Shown: positions 2,112-36,232 of the stretch, one piece after another
Position numbering within the stretch: position 1 is the stretch's first letter
How the letters are laid out: every line of letters starts with the position of its first letter
Assembly: GCA_019456185.1 (NCBI GenBank)
Contig: VRUH01000004.1
Span: 11,131-75,130 of the forward strand
Source: Candidatus Glassbacteria bacterium
Lineage (GTDB): Bacteria; Gemmatimonadota; Glassbacteria; GWA2-58-10
Length of the DNA: 64,000 nucleotides
Direction of reading: 5' to 3'
The notes under the pieces: generated by a model
Seen by the model: the letters and a program-made list of their open reading frames with translations, nothing else
Told to the model about the DNA's origin: nothing
The model's database searches: none
Made by a program: the position numbers and the translations under genes

Positions 2112-3648
2112 CGTTTGCGGCAAGCAGCGAAGAATTTTCCATCATTATCCTCAGCAGCGCGATTACGTCACCAATGCTCCAGACACCATCGTCGTCAATA
2201 TCGTACGACTCCTCACCCGGATTGCGCAAGCCTTTCAGCAGCAGCGACAGGGCGTCGGCGACGTTGAACCGGCCATCGTTGTTGAAATCATAGAGCGACT
2301 CTGGCCCTGCGCCCACCTCGAACGCACCGATATCCGGCCCGTCACCCGCGGGGCGCAGGTTTTCGTTGATATCCTCGATCCTGATCGAGTCCAGCCGCCC
2401 GAGCAGCCAGCCGGCGCTGTCGAGACTGGCGACCATGGCGCGCACCGTGTCCATCGGCGCGGCCGCATCCACCGCCGCGCTGGTATCCGACGGCACGAAG
2501 CTGGTGTCCGGGACCGAGACGAACGAGGGGTCGGCATAGCGGGTATGCTTATCGTTGCCGCTGTTACTACGCCAGTTGCCCAACGAGTATCCCAGCCGGT
2601 CGCTGGTGGTGACGATATTGTTGCTGCTGTCGATTCCCCAGAACAGGTTGTAGTCGCTGATCATGGTGCTGGAATAATCGGACCACATCTGCAGCACGGG
2701 CTCGAACCCGCCGGAGACCAGGATGTTGTTGACTATCACCGTGCTTTTGCTGGTGGACTGAATATTGATTACAGCGCGTCCACCGGACTTGAAATGGACC
2801 GTGTTGTGCATGATCAGCGCGCGCCTGCTGGTATATCTCTGATCATCCGTGTCCGCATAATACGTGAATCCTCCGGCGAAGTTGTTGTAAATCAGGTTAT
2901 TGCGGCAGATAATATCCTGGACGTGGGTCATGTTGATCCCGGCCCCGCCGCCGGCCCCGTTGTCGTGGATGATATTGCGCTCGACAATGCCGAAGTTCAG
3001 CACGCCGTCATCACCTGGCTCGGACATCAGCTCCGGGTCGCCGTTGAGATGGATCCCGTTGCCCCGGTTATGGTGGACATGGTTGCCGCGGATGATAAAC
3101 CGGTTGCCGCTGTTGGAATGGTAAATCCCGTGTTCGTCCCTGGCGCCGTAACTCTCGTTGTTCTCGAACAGAACATCGTCGGCGAACCCGGTGAACAGCC
3201 CCCACTTGTAGTTATTGGCGAATACGCAGTTGCGCACGGTGATATGGTCGCAGCGGATCAGGCTCAGCCCGGCGCGGCTGGAACGGCGGAACGTGAGGCC
3301 GTCAACGATAACGTGCGAGCTGTGGTCCAGACGCAGGTTGTCCCTGTTGTCCCGGTTGCTGGTGTCAATCACGGCGTTCAGGCTCTCGCCCATGAGCACG
3401 ATCGGCGCCTCGGCGGTACCATCCAGTTCCACGAGCGGTCCGCCGGTGTACTCACCCTCGCGGACGAATAAGGTGTCTCCCGCATCCAGACAGCCCAGCG
3501 CCGCCTCGAGCGTGGCGAACTCCGCTCCGGCCCCGCAGGCTGAGTTATCATCTCCGCCGGCGGACAGATAGATCGTTTTGGCCGGCGCCGGCAGCGCGGA
3601 CAGGCACAGGACGAGTGTGATTTTAAGCATGCTGGAATGAAACAGCAT
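2092..3648 (-). CDS. Tandem paralog of the beta-helix/dockerin-like secreted protein
   Basis: Same architecture and about 55% identity by eye to 540-2111 (RGNHVHHNRGNGIHLNGDPE identical; C-terminal YDFNNDGRFNVADALSLL / YDIDDDGVWSIGDVIALL). Start at ATG 3648 is preceded by GGGAGG and gives signal peptide MLFHSSMLKITLVLCLSALPAPA. Confidence 0.8.
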   Translation of the reverse strand: MLFHSSMLKITLVLCLSALPAPAKTIYLSAGGDDNSACGAGAEFATLEAALGCLDAGDTLFVREGEYTGGPLVELDGTAEAPIVLMGESLNAVIDTSNRDNRDNLRLDHSSHVIVDGLTFRRSSRAGLSLIRCDHITVRNCVFANNYKWGLFTGFADDVLFENNESYGARDEHGIYHSNSGNRFIIRGNHVHHNRGNGIHLNGDPELMSEPGDDGVLNFGIVERNIIHDNGAGGGAGINMTHVQDIICRNNLIYNNFAGGFTYYADTDDQRYTSRRALIMHNTVHFKSGGRAVINIQSTSKSTVIVNNILVSGGFEPVLQMWSDYSSTMISDYNLFWGIDSSNNIVTTSDRLGYSLGNWRSNSGNDKHTRYADPSFVSVPDTSFVPSDTSAAVDAAAPMDTVRAMVASLDSAGWLLGRLDSIRIEDINENLRPAGDGPDIGAFEVGAGPESLYDFNNDGRFNVADALSLLLKGLRNPGEESYDIDDDGVWSIGDVIALLRIMMENSSLLAANDDAYSL

Positions 3649-17802: not shown

Positions 17803-18061
17803 AGATCCTCCTTCAGGATCCTTCTGGAACAATTTGCGAATGTAAATGCTTCCTGTTGCCTTCTTTGCGCCTGACCGAAATTCCTGAAAACCGCTCATCT
17901 CTTTCAAGCCACTCATCAGTGCAAGTGCTTCATTCGCCCTCCTTGGAATTGAGTTGTGGTTTCGCTGGAACATTCGGTACGAAAGATGAGTTCCAGCATT
18001 TTGTCGAAATTTAAACCGAGCAGAGCAATTACTTTCCGTTGCCCCTCTTCGGAAATAAAAG

Positions 18062-18090
18062 TTGACGAGATTGCGAATAGTTTATATATT
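18062..18090 (+). promoter_or_regulatory. Near-consensus sigma70-type promoter (TTGACG-N17-TATATT) oriented away from the TBDR operon
   Basis: TTGACG at 18062-18067, 17-nt spacer, TATATT at 18085-18090. No protein-coding gene starts downstream on the plus strand. Confidence 0.45.
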
Positions 18091-18096
18091 AACGTA

Positions 18097-18175
18097 GCAA
18101 TCCCTTGGGATTGCGCTTGTGGCCCATGCCGGATGAACCTTGGCGGAACTGACGGCATGGGCCCTTTTATATTAT
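18097..18175 (+). ncRNA. Candidate small RNA (about 78 nt; a second repeat copy could extend it to about 170 nt)
   Basis: Predicted TSS about 7 nt after the -10. A 5' hairpin GCAATC-ccttgg-GATTGC, then an 11-bp perfect stem GGCCCATGCCG/CGGCATGGGCC followed by CTTTTATATT. A second copy of the terminator-like hairpin plus TTTCTTATTCGTT sits at 18211-18265. Confidence 0.3.
18100..18164. repeat. 65-bp direct repeat copy 1 (hairpin-containing)
   Basis: The 40-nt core CCATGCCGGATGAACCTTGGCGGAACTGACGGCATGGGC is identical to copy 2; the flanks carry 4 mismatches. Confidence 0.9.
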
Positions 18176-18189
18176 TCCGTTCAAACAAA

Positions 18190-18253
18190 AATCCCCTGGA
18201 TTGCGCTCGTGGTCCATGCCGGATGAACCTTGGCGGAACTGACGGCATGGGCA
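18190..18253. repeat. 65-bp direct repeat copy 2 (period 90 bp)
   Basis: See copy 1. The stem holds 10 bp including one G-U wobble. Confidence 0.9.
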
Positions 18254-18376
18254 TTTCTTATTCGTTGTCAGAAATTTGCTCTGAGCAAAAACTTGTTTTT
18301 CATCAATGAATTATGATCTTTTTGTCCTTTTTTATAATCCAGATTACCAGCTTTATATGGTGAATCCCGGATGAAA

Positions 18377-27337: not shown

Positions 27338-29017
27338 ATGAGATCCAAGCTGATCCTGGCCGGTTTAATCGTCCTGGCGGCATCGCTGGCCGCCTGCGCC
27401 GGAAAAACAAGTCCCAAATTCGATATCCTGATCACCGGTGGGACCGTAATCGACGGCACCGGCGCTCCGCGCAGGCAGGTCGATGTGGGTATCATCGCCG
27501 ATACGATCGCCGCGGTGGGGGACCTGGCTGGAGCCTGGTCCGGCCGGCTGATCAACGCCTCCGGGCGGATTGTCGCTCCCGGGGTGATCGACATCCACGG
27601 CCACAGCGATTACAGCATCCTGGTGGACGGCACCGCCCAGAGCAAGATCCGCCAGGGCGTGACCACCGAGATTATCGGCGAGGCGCTCTCCGCGGGGCCG
27701 ATCAGCAGGGCAGGACAGAATTTCAAGCGGGTCGAGGCGCCGCTGTGGGACGCGGATATCGAGTGGAGTACCCTCGGCGAGTATTTCCAGGTGCTCGAGC
27801 GCAGGGGGAGCTCGATCAATATCGGCTCGTTCGTGGGTACGATGAGCGTGCGGCGCTACGTGATCGGCGACACCAACCGCAACCCTTCCGATGTGGAACT
27901 GGACAGCATGTGCGTGCTGGTGGACGCGGCCATGCGCCAGGGCGCGCTGGGAGTGTCCTCGGCTCTGCTGGGCAGCCCGCTCACCACCGCTGAGCTGATT
28001 GCGATGGCCAGGGTGGCCTCGCGCCACGGCGGGATTTACAGCACCCATGTTCGTGATGAGGGTTCGCTGATATTTTCCTCCCTGGACGAGGCGTTCCGGA
28101 TCGGCCGCGAGGCGGATCTCCCGGTCGACGTTATCCATCTCAAAGTGGCTGAGCGCGACCTGTGGGGCAGGATGGACAGCGTGCTGGCCCGGTTCGAGCA
28201 GGCGCGCGAGGAGGGGCTCGACGTCACCGCCAACATGTACCCCTATATCGCCGGGCAGAACAACCTGTCGGCCCTGATTCCGCCGGAGGGACAGGACGGC
28301 GGCCGGGATAAGATGCTCGAGCGGCTGCATGACCCCGGCTGGCGCAGGCAATTCAAGGAAACGCTCTATGCCGGCGGCCGCCCCGACTGGTACAACCACT
28401 ACACCTCCAGCGCCGGCTGGGAAAGCATGCTGGTTGTCTCGACAAAGGCTGAAAAGAATCAGGACCTGATCGGCAGGCGGATGAGCGAGGTGATCGAGAT
28501 GCGCGGCGGCGAGCCCACCGACGTCCTGTTCGACTTGCTGCTGGAGGAGGGCGGCTCCGTGCCGACAGTCTATTTCCTGATGAGCGAGGAGGATGTCCGC
28601 ACGGCGATGGTCCATCCGCTGGTCTCGTTCTGCAGCGACGGGGTGGCGGTCCGCCCCGAGGGTCCGTTGGGCAAGGGCAAACCGCACCCGCGCTGGTACG
28701 GAAGTTTCCCGCGGATTCTGGGCCGCTACGCCCGCGATCAAAAGGTCCTGAGCCTGGAGTCGGCTGTCCATAAGATGACCTGGCAGAATGCAGAAAAACT
28801 GGGTATCACCGGGCGCGGTCTGATCAAAGTGGGTATGGCAGCCGACCTGATGCTCTTCGACCCGGAAAGTGTGCTTGACCGCGCCACGTTCAGCGACCCG
28901 CATCACTACCCCGAGGGAATCGAATACGTGCTGGTCAACGGCACGGTTGTCATCGATAAGGGCGAGCACACGGGCGCGCTGCCGGGCCGGATTATCTACG
29001 GCCCGGGCAGGGAATAA
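27338..29017 (+). CDS. D-aminoacylase (N-acyl-D-amino-acid deacylase; amidohydrolase superfamily) lipoprotein
   Basis: Lipobox LAAC; PGVIDIHGHSD metal-binding motif; about 560 aa, typical of the D-aminoacylase family; adjacent to RidA. Confidence 0.75.
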   Translation: MRSKLILAGLIVLAASLAACAGKTSPKFDILITGGTVIDGTGAPRRQVDVGIIADTIAAVGDLAGAWSGRLINASGRIVAPGVIDIHGHSDYSILVDGTAQSKIRQGVTTEIIGEALSAGPISRAGQNFKRVEAPLWDADIEWSTLGEYFQVLERRGSSINIGSFVGTMSVRRYVIGDTNRNPSDVELDSMCVLVDAAMRQGALGVSSALLGSPLTTAELIAMARVASRHGGIYSTHVRDEGSLIFSSLDEAFRIGREADLPVDVIHLKVAERDLWGRMDSVLARFEQAREEGLDVTANMYPYIAGQNNLSALIPPEGQDGGRDKMLERLHDPGWRRQFKETLYAGGRPDWYNHYTSSAGWESMLVVSTKAEKNQDLIGRRMSEVIEMRGGEPTDVLFDLLLEEGGSVPTVYFLMSEEDVRTAMVHPLVSFCSDGVAVRPEGPLGKGKPHPRWYGSFPRILGRYARDQKVLSLESAVHKMTWQNAEKLGITGRGLIKVGMAADLMLFDPESVLDRATFSDPHHYPEGIEYVLVNGTVVIDKGEHTGALPGRIIYGPGRE

Positions 29018-29186
29018 CGTAAAAAAGCAGGAGTAAGAAGAAAAGATTAGCTTTGCAGAATAACAGGAGAGAGAGTGAGACCTCCGGCCTAAGGGTATGT
29101 GTATTGAAGTCTTAGTTATGACCTAATATGTGTTAAGCATTTTATAATGACCAGATGGGTAACCTTCTGTATTCATTAAACTGATG

Positions 29187-29828
29187 TTAGGAGCCATCTC
29201 TTTTTTCGATTGCTTTTCTCTTTTCCTCAGGTAGCGATTGGTATAAGGCATCAACTTCTTTTGGTTGTGTTATCCTATCATGAGCTATGAAGTTAACCAG
29301 ACGAAACATTTTTTGGACTGTATCGATATCGTCTTTTAAATCCAATACTCCAGGATGAACGGCTTCGTTTCCAGTGACCCTTACAATATCAAGTGCCTTT
29401 TGAATTCCTACGGGCATTCCATCTTTTACTAATGAGGCTATATCTTCATTGATATTTTTGCCCGGTTTACCCAATTGCTTACATAATTTTTGAATGCATA
29501 AACGCAATAGGGCAGCGGCTGCTCTCGGCGATTTAGGCGTTATGGATTTTGCTTCATTGAAATCATCTTGAATATCTTTTTTTAAATCCGGATTAGGAGT
29601 ATCGGAGATTTCAATGTCCGGCAAAATCATTTTTTTATTGACCCAAACGGCTTGATTATTACATGCGTTGCATTTTGAAATATACAGATAATCTGCTGGG
29701 TTATCTGCATCGGGAGAAGCGCTATCATCTTTGAACCATTTTATTACCCTGTACCAGAATTGTTGAGCGTGAGCATTACAAACAGGACATTCAAAACTTC
29801 TTTTTTTATAATTTGGAACTACAGCCAT
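29187..29828 (-). CDS. DUF4145-like (HEPN-clan, Abi-like) protein with N-terminal Cys4 zinc-ribbon; sits in an AT-rich islet
   Basis: CPVCNAHAQ...CNACNNQ zinc-ribbon; C-terminal AAALLRLCIQKLCKQLG...IASLVKDG.MPVGIQKALDIVRVTGNEAVHPG fits the DUF4145 pattern (iR..GN.aaH). GC is about 38% against the ~63% surroundings. Strong SD AGGAGG. Confidence 0.6.
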   Translation of the reverse strand: MAVVPNYKKRSFECPVCNAHAQQFWYRVIKWFKDDSASPDADNPADYLYISKCNACNNQAVWVNKKMILPDIEISDTPNPDLKKDIQDDFNEAKSITPKSPRAAAALLRLCIQKLCKQLGKPGKNINEDIASLVKDGMPVGIQKALDIVRVTGNEAVHPGVLDLKDDIDTVQKMFRLVNFIAHDRITQPKEVDALYQSLPEEKRKAIEKRDGS

Positions 29829-30042
29829 TTATCCTCCTGGCAAGAGTTTTGTTAAATATAACGCATGTCAAAGCAAAAAAAAAGACACACTTGTAGATGC
29901 AAGGTATTACCTGTTTATTGCTGATTCTTTTAATATTAAGGATACTTCACTACACTTGGCCTAACAGGAGGAGGACAGTTAACTGTTCAATGCCTATTAA
30001 TAGCGATTCTGGCTTCTGACTCCTGACTTCTAAGGTAGACCT

Positions 30043-30846
30043 ATGAATAGTAAAATAAATATAGCTTTAGTGGGACTTATTCTACTTTGCCTGGCGCCTT
30101 CTTTCTCCCCCGCACAGTACCAGGACACTGAGCGTCAGTGGGAAAAAATCTACGGCAACCGGCTGTTCGAGCTGATCGAGGAACGTCCGCTGGCCTGGCT
30201 CCCGTTCGGCGTACTCGAGCGCCACGGCGAACACCTTCCCTGGGGCCTGGACGGCGACAAGGCTCACCTGGTCTGTGTGCGGCTGGCCGGGAAAATGGGC
30301 GGAGTGGTGCTGCCTGCCAGCAACCTGGCCGGGGTTCACGGCGACCGCCGTCCTGACCAGGACGAGGAGCAGTTCCGCAGAACGCACCGTGAGGTCGGCG
30401 ATTTTCTTTTCAGCGAGGGTTTTCTGCACCGTTTCCTGCTCGAATCGTTCGATGGCCTGGCCAATCTGGGTTTCGCTGTGATTGTCGCCTACTCCGGCCA
30501 CTGGTCCTCCATTCAGGGTGAAATCCTTAAGGCCGCGGCGGAGGAATTTAATTCTACCGGCAAGGCCATTGTGATACCGTTCGGCGAGATCATGGCCTGC
30601 GGTGTGGTAGATCATGGAGCCAAATACGAGAGTTCGATGTGGGCCGCGCTGGTGCCCGGCGGCGTCAGGATGGATTCAATTGTGGACTACAGCACCGGCC
30701 GCAAGGACTGGTACCGGGGCAAGGAGATCGCCAGCCAGATCAGCGCCGAGTTCGGCGAAGAAGTGTTGAAAATGATCGAAGACTACATGGCCCGTGAGTT
30801 GGACAAGGCGTTCAGCAGCGTGGATAACGGCAGGGGAGAGGAATGA
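30043..30846 (+). CDS. Creatininase-family metal-dependent amidohydrolase (creatinine amidohydrolase / MftE-like) with predicted signal peptide
   Basis: LAWLPFGVLERHGEHLPWGLD matches the creatininase GxxExHGxHLPxxxD motif. Only the first ~30 nt of the N-terminal signal peptide MNSKINIALVGLILLCLAPSFSPAQ are AT-rich. Confidence 0.65.
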   Translation: MNSKINIALVGLILLCLAPSFSPAQYQDTERQWEKIYGNRLFELIEERPLAWLPFGVLERHGEHLPWGLDGDKAHLVCVRLAGKMGGVVLPASNLAGVHGDRRPDQDEEQFRRTHREVGDFLFSEGFLHRFLLESFDGLANLGFAVIVAYSGHWSSIQGEILKAAAEEFNSTGKAIVIPFGEIMACGVVDHGAKYESSMWAALVPGGVRMDSIVDYSTGRKDWYRGKEIASQISAEFGEEVLKMIEDYMARELDKAFSSVDNGRGEE

Positions 30847-31763
30847 GCGCTAAGAGGCTGATGTTATTCATCATCTGTTATGCTGTTACCGGTTGCGGCG
30901 AAATATCCAAACAAAAATCACCCGCCCCGCTAACGCTGCCGATCAAGCTGTTCACTCATCACGATACCTCGATGTCGATGCTCAACATGCTCTATGTCAG
31001 TTCGCCGTGGCAGGCCGGCGAGTACATGGCGCTGGATTTTCCAGAGCACAGTTGGGGGAAGAATTTCAGCGGTGTGAGCACTGACACCCGCGACGGCAAT
31101 CCGCACCCCAGCCGCTGGCAGTTCAACGCTGATTCAACCGAGGCCTGGTACGAGGTAACCGCCCGCGATGGAAACCTGTACCGTGCCTCGGCCAGCGTGG
31201 ACTCGATGGCTGTCCGGCTGGAAATGAAATTCACCAATCGTACCCAGCAGCCGATCAGCGATATCCGTATCCTGGTCTGCACCAGGCCGAACACCATGCG
31301 GGCATTCGCGGATACTTCGTTCGCCATGACCTGGGTGGCGGTAGATGGCAAACCGGTGCAGTTGGGCGAGGGCACGACGATGATCGGCGAAGTGCCCGAG
31401 GACCACGTGCGGCATGTGATGAATATTCGTGGAGGACCTGATAACCGCGATCTTGGCGATCTCGGCTGGTTCACCGCCTCCTGGGGCAAGCCGTTTTGCC
31501 GCCTGGCCGAGGAGCACGCCTGGCCGCCGGTTGTCGCCACCCACGCGCGCGGGGACATGACCCGTTGGCTGGGCACGATCTGGAACCCCTCGCGAGCCAT
31601 ATTCTCCAACCCGCGTATCCCGTGTATCCACTCTGACCCTGTGCCCGCGGACTGTCCCCCCGGTGAATCGACCGTGGCCCGGGGCGCGGTGTTTTTCCAC
31701 AACGGGACCATGGCTGGCCTTATCGAGCGCGCGGGCCAATGGAAGGATAGTCTGACGGAATAG
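30843..31763 (+). CDS. Lipoprotein of unknown function (novel family, paralog A)
   Basis: Lipobox VTGC. Conserved blocks shared with 32678-33637: HSPWQ, FPEH.WG, FNADSTEA, GGPDNR, WLATIW, VRGAVFFH. ATGA overlap with the upstream stop. Confidence 0.7.
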   Translation: MSAKRLMLFIICYAVTGCGEISKQKSPAPLTLPIKLFTHHDTSMSMLNMLYVSSPWQAGEYMALDFPEHSWGKNFSGVSTDTRDGNPHPSRWQFNADSTEAWYEVTARDGNLYRASASVDSMAVRLEMKFTNRTQQPISDIRILVCTRPNTMRAFADTSFAMTWVAVDGKPVQLGEGTTMIGEVPEDHVRHVMNIRGGPDNRDLGDLGWFTASWGKPFCRLAEEHAWPPVVATHARGDMTRWLGTIWNPSRAIFSNPRIPCIHSDPVPADCPPGESTVARGAVFFHNGTMAGLIERAGQWKDSLTE

Positions 31764-32677: not shown

Positions 32678-33637
32678 ATGAATCGGGTAACGGCTTTAGC
32701 AATATTTCCAGTTGTCGCGCTGCTGGCTTGTTCCTCGGAGAGCATCCAGAGGCAAACCATACCGGACCCGGTGCCCGGTCTTTCAACCTTCACTGAGATG
32801 CGTACCGGCGGCGTGCGGGATATTTTTATCCACTCGCCGTGGCAGCCGGAAAAATCCCTGTCGCTTGGCTTCCCCGAGCACTGCTGGGGAGCCGGTTTGC
32901 CCAACACCAGTCACGACAGCCGGGAGCCGGTAGCCTCACCGTGGGGCTTCAACGCGGACTCCACGGAAGCCTCGTACGAAAACGTGCCGAAGCCTGATGT
33001 TGTTTACCGTGCCAGGGCATGGGCGGACTCGATGGCGGTCTGGTTGAGCGCGACGATAGTCAACCGCACCGACGAGCCGATCACCGATATCCGCTCATTG
33101 GTCTGCCTCAAGCCCGATTCGCACAAGGGCGCGCCGAAACGGCCCGATGCGATTGCCGGTTTCCGCGATACGAGTTTCAGCCGCACATGGATATTCGTGG
33201 ATGGCCGTCCCGTGCGGCTCGGCGAGGAGACCACCTATAACGGGGATATCCCCGACAGGGGCTGGGCCGAGCACGAAATCCGCAGCAAGATCAACTGGGG
33301 CGTGAATATCAAGGGCGGGCCGGACAACCGCACGATCCGGGATGTCGGCTGGTTCCGCGGCAACAGCCCTGGACGGATCGTGGAGGAGCTGGCCGAGCCG
33401 CCGCTGATCGCGGTCCGTGACGAGTTCCACGAGGACCGCTGGCTGGCCACGATTTGGCAGCCGGCGCGGGTGTTGTTCAGCAACCCGCAGAACCCCTGTT
33501 TCCACTCCGACCCCTCGTTCCCCGACTGCCCGGCCCGCGACTCAGTGACCGTGCGCGGCGCGGTGTTTTTCCACCAGGGTTCGCTGAAGGGCCTGCTGGC
33601 GCGGGTGGAAAACTGGCGGGCAAGTGTGCCGGAGTAA
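32678..33637 (+). CDS. Lipoprotein of unknown function (paralog B of 30843-31763)
   Basis: Lipobox LLAC; GGAGG SD; about 40% identity to paralog A across the full length. Confidence 0.7.
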   Translation: MNRVTALAIFPVVALLACSSESIQRQTIPDPVPGLSTFTEMRTGGVRDIFIHSPWQPEKSLSLGFPEHCWGAGLPNTSHDSREPVASPWGFNADSTEASYENVPKPDVVYRARAWADSMAVWLSATIVNRTDEPITDIRSLVCLKPDSHKGAPKRPDAIAGFRDTSFSRTWIFVDGRPVRLGEETTYNGDIPDRGWAEHEIRSKINWGVNIKGGPDNRTIRDVGWFRGNSPGRIVEELAEPPLIAVRDEFHEDRWLATIWQPARVLFSNPQNPCFHSDPSFPDCPARDSVTVRGAVFFHQGSLKGLLARVENWRASVPE

Positions 33638-33733
33638 ATAACTATAGCTGTTGTCAAAAGTCTTTCTTTTTGAAAAGGAAAGAAGACATTAAGAATGGTA
33701 CGGAAAAACTTCCATTGCTAAAGAAAATCGTAG

Positions 33734-33753
33734 GGGCGACACATGTGTCGCCC
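33734..33753. repeat. Perfect 20-bp palindrome GGGCGACACATGTGTCGCCC
   Basis: Sits between convergent genes; member of the GGGCGA-N8-TCGCCC palindrome family. Confidence 0.8.
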
Positions 33754-33783
33754 GTCAACCTGTGCACCTGCTGAATTCTTTGC

Positions 33784-33803
33784 GGGCGAGGCATGCCTCG
33801 CCC
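33784..33803. repeat. Perfect 20-bp palindrome GGGCGAGGCATGCCTCGCCC
   Basis: Lies 30 bp after the previous palindrome. Near-identical to the hairpin at 25656. Confidence 0.8.
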
Positions 33804-33955
33804 CTACAACGTTTGGTGTTAACGGGGGTGTAAGAATTCTCATTCTGTTGCATAAGAGGCCCGGACAAAACGAGGTTTTACCGGTGGCTGCGGACAAAAT
33901 CGGGTCAATATGCAGTGAGAAAATATGAGAAAAAACGAGTGGAAAATGAAAACCT

Positions 33956-34480
33956 CTAAACACTATATGTTGTGGTTTGAGAAATACGTCCGACCGCGCC
34001 CTTGGCAGTATTATAGGGCTTTTGCTTGTATCCTTTTACAGCCTCAATACAGACCTTAACCACAATATTTCGGAATTGCGTAAGTGTTATATTCACAGTC
34101 ACATCAGGATCAATATTTTGCATAGACATTTTCCCGTCGGAGAAGAAAAACTGCCAATATTTACCTTCATGTACAACATCGCATCTGACATCGTACAAGA
34201 AGTCAATTATTTCTCTGAGAGTCAAAGGTTTTTGATTAGGATTAATAATATTGTGCCTGAATCCGTTTTTTAGGTATTCTCGTTCCTGTTGTGGGACAAT
34301 TTCCTCAAAAAACTTTCGTGTGTAAATCCTCGATTTTCCTTCCTTATTGAAGTTATGGTAAAGCTTCGAAATGTTTTCTGCGCATATCAGCAAGAAAAGC
34401 AATTGAAGGGATTCGCGGTCGGGCTTAATTCGGGGCAAATCGTCTGCCAAGGATATGAGCCTTTGCGCTTGATGCATCAT
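33956..34480 (-). CDS. Hypothetical small protein with an Rx4H (HEPN-like) motif in an AT-rich islet; possible Abi-like RNase
   Basis: About 35-38% GC. LYDVRCDVVHEGKYW carries R-x4-H. Start uncertain: ATG 34480 or TTG 34516. No homolog recognised. Confidence 0.45.
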   Translation of the reverse strand: MMHQAQRLISLADDLPRIKPDRESLQLLFLLICAENISKLYHNFNKEGKSRIYTRKFFEEIVPQQEREYLKNGFRHNIINPNQKPLTLREIIDFLYDVRCDVVHEGKYWQFFFSDGKMSMQNIDPDVTVNITLTQFRNIVVKVCIEAVKGYKQKPYNTAKGAVGRISQTTTYSV

Positions 34481-34743
34481 TATTGTAGCTTCATGTTTTT
34501 GATCATTTGGGCCCAAACTCTCTAAGCTTTCAACGAACTGCCTCGCATCTTCAAGTCTATTAAAAAAAAGGAGAATAAAAGTCTAGCCACTCATTCATGG
34601 CCTCAACTCCTGTTTAGAGAATACAGCAAAAAGTTATCATAAAGATATGTCTAAGTTATACAGCGAAATAATACAGGTAAATTCAATAGATATTTTGATC
34701 ATGCTGATGAATCTCTCTCGCCATTAGAGGGTTATATATTACA

Positions 34744-34775
34744 ACAAAGGGACACGGCATGCCGTGTCCCTTTGT
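34744..34775. terminator. 32-bp perfect palindrome AACAAAGGGACACGGCATGCCGTGTCCCTTTGTT (bidirectional intrinsic terminator)
   Basis: GC stem flanked by AAA/TTT on both arms; 36 nt after the stop of the 34811-36232 gene. Confidence 0.6.
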
Positions 34776-34810
34776 GTTTAAAGAATAATTTTGTTGCTAA
34801 TACAGATCTA

Positions 34811-36232
34811 TCATCTTTCCAGTTCGGGTATTTTCACATCGTAGCGCGAGGCCTGCATCAGCACGTGGCGCGTATCGCTCAGCGGCCAGGGCCACGGGCA
34901 AGATGGCAGGTAGTTGAGGTCCACTTCCACCATCGCCACGCCGGGCCGCTCGGTGGCCTCGGCCAGCAGGGCGCCCCACGGGCCGTAGATCCTGCTCTCC
35001 ACGTCGTAGCCGCAGCTTGCCACGTAGACATGGTTCTCTATCGCCCGCGCGGCGATCAGGGTGTTGTTGCCGCCCCAGATCGGCAGCAGGATAATCTCCG
35101 CGCCGGCGGCGGCAAGCGCGCGCGCCGGATCGACAAACCAGCTGTCCCAGCAGATCATGATCCCAACGCGGCCGAAATCAGTCTCCCAGACCGGGTAACT
35201 GTCGCCGGCGCTGCAGCCCTGGTCGTACTCTCCCTCGGGCAGATGGACCTTGCGGTACTTGCCCTTAACTTCGCCGTCGCGCCCGATCAGCACGGCGGTG
35301 TTGTAAATCACCGCTCCCTCACGCTCGCCCAGCGCCGCCACGATATACATCCCGTGCTCTCTGGCCACTTTACTAAGGGCCTCGGTGGTCGGGCCGGGAA
35401 TCGGCTCGGCGACATGCTGGTATTTGCTGGCGCCTCCACCGGGCCGGCCCACGCCGATCAGGTTGATTCCCTCGCCGAGACAGACGATATCCGCACCCTG
35501 AGCACCTGCTTTATCCGCCACGGCGCAGAACTCGGCGACTGTTTCGGCCACCGATGAGTTCCCGCCGGGACGGCAGTTGACAGTTGCCAGTTGCACCACG
35601 CGATGCGGCGGCGGCCGGACCTCGATCAACTGGATATTGTCCCACCAGACACGGCCCTGGGGCGCCTGGCTGATAAACAGCTCAAGTGCCACGCTGCGCG
35701 CCGATTCGGGGGCCTGGAACGTGTGCTCCACGAACCGCCACTCTCCATCGGTGATCCCATTCTGCGGCGGGTATTCACGCGTATTGCCGATCTTCCCGCC
35801 CTGCGCGTTGCGCCACTCCAGGCGGGCGAACACCCGGTGGTGAGTCTGCCGGATACCCGTCGAGGCGAAAGCGGCGGAGAAAGTGTAAAACGCTCCGCCC
35901 TCGATTCCCTCGACCACCTTGCGCCAGCAGCCGCGGGCTGAGCTGTTGGAGGCGCCGTAGAGGCTGAGACTGCCCCGGCCGGTCATGCTTTTGTTCAGGT
36001 CGACACTGAACTCCGGGCTGATCTCCTGGCGCTGGCAGGCTGTTTCCCACCCAGCGCCGGAGGAATCGAACGTGTCCTGGCTCAGCAGGGTTTTCCCATC
36101 GTGAGAGTGACCCGGCAGCGGCAGGGCCAGCAGCGCCAGCAGGATCAGGGTTGGATGGATCAGGGCCGCTTCCACGGTGCGCCCGGGTGCAGCCGTGAGG
36201 GTTGATTCCTGCTTACCGGTAAGTCTGGTCAT
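34811..36232 (-). CDS. Secreted carbon-nitrogen hydrolase (nitrilase superfamily) with about 200-aa N-terminal beta-sandwich-like extension
   Basis: C-terminal 270 aa show the C-N hydrolase fold with catalytic Cys in GIMICWDSWF, plus E and K. The N-terminal signal peptide and Trp-rich domain (RVWWDNIQL) are unusual for this family. Confidence 0.7.
   Translation of the reverse strand: MTRLTGKQESTLTAAPGRTVEAALIHPTLILLALLALPLPGHSHDGKTLLSQDTFDSSGAGWETACQRQEISPEFSVDLNKSMTGRGSLSLYGASNSSARGCWRKVVEGIEGGAFYTFSAAFASTGIRQTHHRVFARLEWRNAQGGKIGNTREYPPQNGITDGEWRFVEHTFQAPESARSVALELFISQAPQGRVWWDNIQLIEVRPPPHRVVQLATVNCRPGGNSSVAETVAEFCAVADKAGAQGADIVCLGEGINLIGVGRPGGGASKYQHVAEPIPGPTTEALSKVAREHGMYIVAALGEREGAVIYNTAVLIGRDGEVKGKYRKVHLPEGEYDQGCSAGDSYPVWETDFGRVGIMICWDSWFVDPARALAAAGAEIILLPIWGGNNTLIAARAIENHVYVASCGYDVESRIYGPWGALLAEATERPGVAMVEVDLNYLPSCPWPWPLSDTRHVLMQASRYDVKIPELER

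Follow-up and report, generated by a model that had tools for sequence, protein, structure and literature searches.

HEPN domains are defined as four-helix bundles with an insert between helices 2 and 3, in which an R-x4-6-H motif is conserved at the end of helix 3 or at the start of the loop to helix 4, a polar N, D or H usually follows the arginine, and a second conserved acidic residue lies in helix 2, typically as E-x3-[KR] (Anantharaman et al. 2013, PMC3710099). Amongst the proteins with such domains, PD-T7-4, i.e., RAZR, is an experimentally characterised abortive-infection RNase that combines a zinc ribbon with a HEPN-like domain (PMC13017515), and AbiV is a HEPN RNase of Lactococcus (structures 9bj6/9bj7; 10.1101/2024.05.05.592566). 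PD-T7-4 and AbiV are amongst the commoner defence systems found in integron cassettes, and the superintegron of V. cholerae N16961 carries Esos, a single-gene anti-phage cassette described as having 'only a HEPN-like domain' (10.1101/2024.07.02.601686). Here, a 64,000-nucleotide (nt) stretch of a Candidatus Glassbacteria genome (assembly GCA_019456185.1, contig VRUH01000004.1, positions 11,131 to 75,130), referred to as the window, was analysed for the nature of a low-GC (guanine plus cytosine) islet at ~33,600-34,800 and of the single gene on its minus strand, which encodes a candidate HEPN-like protein.

We lean, by a small degree, towards reading this islet as a standalone cassette that was acquired horizontally and encodes a HEPN-like RNase, a toxin or defence protein that would be a dimer with R138 and H143 plus E74 and K78 in its active site. 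The family to which the protein belongs most likely represents a divergent branch of the HEPN superfamily, and we infer catalytic activity, a dimeric state and a biological role for the HEPN-like protein. The evidence comes from the conserved residues and predicted fold of the family, from its comparison with known systems, and from the way in which the gene is inserted in this and other genomes.

The protein had been regarded as an orphan. A search of 5.8 billion proteins instead returned 185 homologs, all of ~190 amino acids (aa) and all annotated as 'hypothetical', and a profile search of 1.84 billion cluster representatives retrieved 448 clusters at 50% identity with E<=1e-3 (309 with E<=1e-10). 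The family is uncharacterised and widespread, and has no Pfam, PADLOC or NCBIfam model. In a scan of one genome per species, 56 genomic loci were located in Deltaproteobacteria, Nitrospira, Acidobacteria, Chloroflexi, Myxococcota, Bacteroidota, Ignavibacteriota, Spirochaetes, Beta- and Gammaproteobacteria, and Vibrio, and across several phyla the family gene forms a low-GC pocket in GC-rich hosts. A tblastn search of phage genomes gave no family match. With 448 clusters, and members in Vibrio cholerae, V. parahaemolyticus, Nitrospira, Acidobacteria, Chloroflexi and others, this is a large family that current defence-finder models miss. Frameshifts, in-frame stops or insertions (1.4 kb and 5 kb in size) break the gene at about 12 of the 56 loci (L050, L055, L056, L062-L067, L035/L036, L041 and L014). 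Several of the disrupted metagenome-assembled genomes (MAGs) carry the isolate prefix MFD, which we take to denote long-read assemblies; if so, some of these breaks may be sequencing errors.

The fold was modelled with AlphaFold2 for the window protein, repaired as described below, and for a V. cholerae member ~40% identical to it. Both models were confident (predicted local distance difference test score, pLDDT, 91.8 and predicted template modelling score, pTM, 0.87 for the window protein; pLDDT 97.0 and pTM 0.92 for the V. cholerae protein) and revealed one common topology. Two N-terminal helices (residues 2-11 and 15-26) precede long helices at 35-57 and 62-80, two short helices within 89-112, a further long helix at 127-144, a beta-hairpin at ~159-168 and a last helix at 172-189. 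The core of the predicted fold is thus made of four long helices, the second and third of which are separated by a helical insert; two helices extend it at the N-terminus, and a beta-hairpin precedes the last helix.

Amongst 83 diverse members, with a mean column identity of 26%, E74, F96 and R138 are invariant, and R46, F68, A73, K78, S89, F97, Y135, C139, H143 and G145 are conserved in at least 90%. The R-x4-H motif first noted in the open reading frame (ORF) of the window, which contains LYDVRCDVVHEG with RCDVVH, is thereby borne out, as its arginine is invariant and its histidine is present in >=90% of these members; the proposed helical context also held, since a long helix of the confidently helical models has the motif at its C-terminal end. 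The R-x4-H at the C-terminal end of the third long helix and the E-x3-K in the second (Table 1) are both at the positions expected of HEPN domains (PMC3710099). A zinc site consisting of C72, C139 and C183 was considered and dropped, as C72 and C183 are not conserved in the diverse alignment.

One comparison is provided by the window itself. The first of its two low-GC islets (~28950-30200) carries at 29187-29828 (-) a full-length, 213-aa PD-T7-4 homolog (PADLOC E 2.7e-84; DUF4145 E 1.8e-13) with a CPVC...CNAC zinc ribbon, a DUF4145 domain and conserved R...H catalytic residues; a Candidatus Glassbacteria protein matches it at 100% identity. By homology, then, a genuine defence gene of the HEPN-like kind, RAZR/PD-T7-4, occupies the first islet, 4 kb away from the gene studied here. 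As with RAZR, the target is a single-gene, ~200-aa, low-GC insertion without a partner gene, with a helical domain and a conserved R...H ending in 'VH(P/E)G'; the sole alignment produced by hhalign between the family and the RAZR/DUF4145 alignment pairs the two histidines, placing VHEG on the catalytic VHPG of RAZR. PD-T7-4 is reported from integron cassettes (10.1101/2024.07.02.601686), and members of the family lie between Vibrio cholerae repeat (VCR)-like sequences in Vibrio. Unlike RAZR, the target has no zinc ribbon or Cys4 motif and no PADLOC or DUF4145 match, its N-terminal extension is helical, and its motif is R-x4-H as opposed to the R-x7-H of RAZR; the hhalign match is not significant.

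Other HEPN proteins resemble the target in part. AbiV, a standalone toxin without a protein antitoxin, resembles the target in its length (~200 aa), in an N-terminal helix that lies outside the core and in a beta-hairpin ahead of the last helix, and was the top-ranked Foldseek match for the window model. This match had E 1.2 and template modelling (TM) scores of 0.33-0.40, however; AbiV was absent from the matches of the Vibrio model, has no sequence similarity to the target, and carries its motif, RNHKSKH, in a flexible loop earlier in the chain. In the Foldseek results for the window model, HEPN proteins (AbiV 9bj6/9bj7, 4nqf and Las1) held most top ranks, none of them significantly, and of the HEPN proteins only 4nqf recurred with the Vibrio model, again with the highest TM-score and probability. 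The canonical small HEPN protein 4nqf has the same four-helix core and the best TMt values (0.57 and 0.49; TM-scores 0.42/0.57 for the window model and 0.40/0.49 for the Vibrio model, E 1.9-2.7, not significant), but it is 145 aa long, versus ~190 aa, and has neither the N-terminal extension nor the beta-hairpin. AbiU2 (PF18734) is likewise a standalone HEPN protein of ~190 aa, whereas its hhalign alignment to the family covers 15 columns only and the target has no Pfam match. Esos is alike by description, as a single-gene HEPN-like Vibrio integron cassette with no other feature; the V. cholerae members of the family were found on tens of contigs only, which argues against their presence in the pandemic lineage.

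Further indications come from annotations and domain fusions. Vibrio members are named 'HEPN domain-containing protein' in RefSeq and UniRef (e.g., WP_072670129.1, WP_113592296.1 and WP_050921859.1). In the protein P0167, the family domain is joined or contiguous to a significant AbiU2 HEPN domain (E 2.6e-17), and P0190 has an N-terminal domain with the canonical RNYLAH (QRNYLAHS) and a sub-threshold DUF4145 match. These two domain combinations would weakly favour a HEPN assignment.

A number of observations weigh against an RNase of the HEPN superfamily. Nothing significant was found in Pfam, NCBIfam, PADLOC or PHROGs for the target or the scanned members (30 and 83). Of two sequence-profile searches of the PDB, one was empty and the other returned only KChIP at E>0.1, which was dismissed; all Foldseek matches in the PDB had E>0.5 with both models, and hhalign gave E 0.12-0.22 against RAZR/DUF4145 and E 0.036, over the 15 columns mentioned, against AbiU2. 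The residue after R138 is Cys139, conserved in >=90% of members, and not the N, D or H usual in HEPN domains. No basis was found for the RefSeq HEPN name of the Vibrio members, and, as all remaining AbiU2 homologs retrieved stand alone, P0167 may result from read-through between two adjacent genes. The genomic neighbours of the family are mostly housekeeping or small ORFs of no assigned function, with little enrichment in defence genes, and no measurement of RNase activity, toxicity or a phage phenotype was found for any family member. The HEPN proposal of the preliminary description is supported in part, by the motif positions and the RefSeq name, but it has no statistically significant tie to a named HEPN family. 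Matches to HtrL_YibB and DUF6849 were also set aside, being below the cut-off and not common to other members, and a search of the BFVD viral structures with Foldseek gave no significant match.

That the islet was acquired by insertion is shown by its composition and by comparison with related genomes. Its GC fraction is 0.37-0.46 versus 0.60-0.67 in both flanks, as had been claimed from the sequence, and only two low-GC stretches of >1 kb exist in the window, namely this one and that at 28.95-30.2 kb. The surrounding genes are metabolic (amidohydrolase, creatininase, PL14-like, CN-hydrolase, 3-keto-disaccharide hydrolase) or encode an ankyrin protein; no mobility genes were detected within or adjoining the islet, and no tRNA in the whole window, in agreement with the initial account. 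Six related metagenome contigs share the gene order ankyrin, 3-keto-hydrolase, CN-hydrolase, p319, PL14, p306, creatininase and amidohydrolase, at 55-85% amino-acid identity to the cluster of the window, and both islet genes are missing from all six; therefore, both islets are insertions. The gap between the CN-hydrolase and p319 genes is 1173 bp in the window and 66-450 bp in the six contigs, and that between the creatininase and amidohydrolase genes, which houses the first islet, is 1025 bp versus 96 bp in one of them, L069. The kinship of the two islets proposed earlier holds on both counts, since the first is RAZR/PD-T7-4 and each is an insertion relative to the syntenic relatives.

The inserted segment consists of one gene with ~145 nt upstream and ~143 nt downstream. 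In L069, whose site is empty, the terminator of the CN-hydrolase gene and two GGGCGA..TCGCCC hairpins are separated by ~135 bp of unrelated sequence. A GTTGTA hexamer is present at both insert junctions, a weak feature that could be due to chance. DNA similarity between the window and the locus with the closest intact homolog (L001, Gemmatimonadota) covers only the ORF, short of the C-terminus, and the 28 nt that precede the ATG; because of this no shared element ends are visible. In another related contig (L071, positions 3075-3248) the same intergenic site is 450 bp long, AT-rich and occupied by a different, 57-aa ORF (MKYRVHRFDIRMTRDQGKLEQF...), which suggests that the site repeatedly takes up small foreign genes.

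Elsewhere, the family is found in varied surroundings. The 132 ORFs flanking 48 loci match 105 Pfam families, none of which occurs in more than two loci, and a conserved operon partner or protein antitoxin, including the minimal nucleotidyltransferase of type II HEPN-MNT pairs, was looked for amongst these ORFs and rejected as none was found. These varied neighbourhoods without a conserved partner indicate that the family gene is a standalone unit. One member is a solitary insertion between nuoI and an aminotransferase gene, another lies directly 3' of OLD-type ATPase and UvrD-helicase genes, and others are located amongst small SUKH, Sel1, SHOCT or HNH ORFs. Matches to defence models are scattered, with one ORF each for PD-T4-6 kinase, mad6, MkoA, PDC-S42 and PDC-S57, and a few antitoxin genes (MazE, PhdYefM) are present. 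The enrichment in defence genes across the family is thus weak to modest, which does not support the defence hot-spot suggested at the outset.

In V. injensis and V. mimicus (L045, L046) the gene lies between ~125-nt repeats that end in GTTAT, GTTAG or GTTAA and recur every 500-900 bp; read as VCR-like attC sites, these would make the gene an integron cassette there. The repeats at locus L056 begin with TAACAAG, end with GTTAG and look attC-like. On three conjugative V. harveyi plasmids, the family gene is located beside a resolvase gene and a Phd/RelE pair. An integron attC site, i.e., an imperfect palindrome ending in GTTRRRY, was also searched for at the islet of the window, where no attC-like repeat was found.

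The limits of the gene in the window had to be revised. A single minus-strand ORF of 186 aa does exist as first described, but it is part of a longer, frameshifted gene whose repaired product has 213 aa, so the reported size of 175-186 aa was too small. Homologs have ~27 extra N-terminal residues with the consensus MxKWxxFYxPFFxxxxxAxxFVExLExL, and in the window these are split over two frames, with MNEWLDFYSPFF followed by TAA and the next 15 residues (NRLEDARQFVESLES) encoded in the frame of the 186-aa ORF. L001 is 77% identical to the window in DNA, has T7 at the position of the T8 tract and shares the upstream sequence CAGGAGTTGAGGnnATG. The public record (FVQ81_02665, Candidatus Glassbacteria) annotates a 164-aa fragment only. 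The T8 tract recurs in L080, a contig that Logan assembled independently from run SRR8799001 and that matches the islet at 100% identity; an assembly artefact is thus unlikely, although the reads of L080 may be the same as those behind the MAG.

The extra T in the T7 tract breaks the reading frame after codon 12, and for this reason the copy in the window is probably a recently inactivated pseudogene and the gene in this Candidatus Glassbacteria genome probably dead. There is a very small chance that the frameshift does not inactivate the gene, and that +1 ribosomal slippage at UUU-UAA or transcriptional slippage on T8 yields a low level of full-length protein and so throttles a toxic gene. 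The CCU UUU UUU UAA context would permit exact re-pairing of tRNA-Phe in the +1 frame, T8 was reproduced in the second assembly, and the 213 codons contain no other stop or defect, with a ratio of nonsynonymous to synonymous substitution rates (dN/dS) of 0.20 against L001. Against such slippage, the frame is unbroken in the closest homolog and in all other intact members, the disruptions at ~12 of the 56 loci are of unrelated kinds that resemble ordinary decay or sequencing error, and no stimulatory Shine-Dalgarno-like element is located upstream of the T8 run. Inactivation remains the preferred reading of the frameshift.

The islet of the window is read as a minimal cassette, consisting of its own upstream region, a Shine-Dalgarno sequence and one gene, that entered a variable intergenic stretch flanked by two conserved metabolic genes. 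For the protein, a mechanism can be proposed. It would dimerise, as HEPN domains do, and R138/H143 at the end of helix 3 together with E74/K78 in helix 2 would form a metal-independent RNase site. Cleavage of cellular or phage RNA by this site would lead to growth arrest, acting either as abortive-infection defence or as toxin-type stabilisation of the cassette. As no conserved protein partner exists, control would have to be intrinsic, either through a trigger like that of RAZR or through an RNA.

How far the family is a matter of defence, of addiction or of neither has to be weighed against the same observations. It is unlikely, in our assessment, that the HEPN-like protein serves mainly as an addiction or stabilisation toxin, either type III-like with an RNA antitoxin or self-limited, that maintains integron arrays, plasmids and islets. 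The VCR-like repeat arrays of Vibrio, the conjugative plasmids with Phd/RelE alongside, the MazE and PhdYefM genes amongst the neighbours, the lack of a conserved protein partner and three 12-nt direct repeats upstream of the gene are all consistent with such a role; yet no tandem-repeat antitoxin-like RNA and no Rfam match were detected, the upstream similarity between the window and L001 extends over 28 nt only, and toxin-antitoxin and defence roles are not mutually exclusive. Lower still stands the proposal of a non-catalytic helical immunity protein, anti-toxin or regulator in which the conserved R, H, E and K would serve in binding, which we consider quite improbable. Some neighbours are of the sort common in poly-immunity loci (SUKH/SMI1_KNR4, Sel1, SHOCT and numerous small ORFs on the same strand), and the profile and fold searches gave no significant HEPN match, but the strictest conservation falls on polar and charged residues in the exact HEPN catalytic arrangement, Vibrio members carry the RefSeq HEPN name, and immunity proteins usually pair with a toxin gene, none of which is conserved here.

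The standalone HEPN-like RNase toxin or defence cassette is accordingly the interpretation we retain. A more specific version of it is possible, though on the doubtful side, in which the family is an undescribed single-gene abortive-infection RNase whose divergent HEPN core (R-C-x3-H plus E-x3-K) is preceded by a helical sensor at the N-terminus, mobile as a minimal promoter-plus-gene cassette across at least 10 phyla. In Vibrio such a cassette would be attC-flanked; elsewhere it would have neither attC nor mobility genes and would be placed beside terminators in variable intergenic sites. The T-run at codons 10-12 may serve as a switch, with slippage silencing or throttling the gene. If members were active phage-protective RNases, a compact ~190-aa single-gene system would be added to the HEPN defence repertoire. 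The window represents a clean natural case of two independent single-gene defence-type insertions in a conserved metabolic cluster, with empty sites in relatives, and can be utilized for studying how minimal cassettes move without recognisable recombination machinery.

Table 1. Coordinates of the gene, its motifs and the surrounding features in the window.
Feature	Position	Strand	Remarks
R138-C-D-V-V-H143, putative catalytic R-x4-H (R111-H116 in 186-aa numbering)	34169..34186	-	C-terminal end of helix 127-144
E74-N-I-S-K78, E-x3-K	34364..34378	-	helix 62-80; fits Ex3[KR] of HEPN helix 2 (PMC3710099)
Full gene with 1-nt frameshift	33956..34598	-	213 aa with one T removed; aligns end to end with 119 homologs
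ORF as first read, 186 aa from TTG	33956..34516	-	lacks the N-terminal 27 residues
N-terminal 12 codons MNEWLDFYSPFF, then TAA	34560..34598	-	frame of the true start codon; fits family consensus MxKWxxFYxPFF
Frameshift site, A8 on + strand (T8 on coding strand)	34562..34569		T7 in L001; T8 in L080
Shine-Dalgarno-like AGGAG, 8 nt upstream of ATG 34598	34607..34611	-	CAGGAGTTGAGG(CC/TT)ATG conserved between window and L001
Inserted low-GC segment, ~930 bp	33813..34743		from empty site of L069 and GC profile; boundaries approximate
Perfect palindrome, 32 nt	34744..34775		terminator-like hairpin of CN-hydrolase gene (34811-36232, -); host, outside insert
Two related 20-nt perfect palindromes (33734-33753, 33784-33803)	33730..33807		downstream of 319-aa gene; host-native

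The perfect palindromes listed in Table 1 had been described as flanking the islet. Their positions and perfection were confirmed, and they exceed chance (two found versus 0.05 expected, and one found versus 0.00 expected), but they do not mark islet boundaries, as the gene-free site of L069 has homologs of all three, plus a further hairpin of the type of the 20-nt pair. In L069, a GGGACACGG..CCGTGTCCC hairpin follows directly after the CN-hydrolase stop codon, the same hairpin with a T-run is present in L070, which likewise has no islet, and a pair nearly identical to the 20-nt palindromes of the window reads GGGCGAGGCATGCCTCGCCC / GGGCGACAnATGTGTCGCCC. From this comparison, the palindromes are host terminator or repetitive extragenic palindromic (REP)-like elements, and a role as mobile-element ends or attC sites was ruled out. 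The Logan contig L080 (987 bp, corresponding to window 33804-34773) starts and ends inside the host palindromes, and the hairpins appear to break its assembly graph exactly at the islet borders. An Rfam scan of both islets gave only a sub-threshold match, on the terminator hairpin.

Within the 145-nt upstream region, a 12-nt direct repeat (AATACAGCAAAA-like on the + strand; TTTnnCTGTAT in gene orientation) occurs three times, at 34620-34631, 34657-34668 and 34670-34681, and could be an operator or promoter element, or due to chance. A LexA-type box (CTGT-N9-ACAG) was also considered upstream of the gene and dropped because of wrong spacing and lack of conservation in L001. Two further architectures were observed amongst family members, namely a multi-pass transmembrane N-terminus on the family domain in P0177 (516 aa) and a C-terminal DUF413 plus an acidic tail in three clusters (P0171, P0186 and P0209).

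Additionally, two paralogous genes for 306- and 319-aa proteins (30843-31763 and 32678-33637, +), ~41% identical and without a Pfam match, bracket the PL14-like gene of the window, and this arrangement is kept in all related contigs. Finally, between the genes for a 1118-aa and a 439-aa protein, a low-GC intergenic stretch at 17916-18309 contains a duplicated segment of ~60 nt, both copies of which translate to ...PMPSVPPRFIRHGP(R/Q)AQS....

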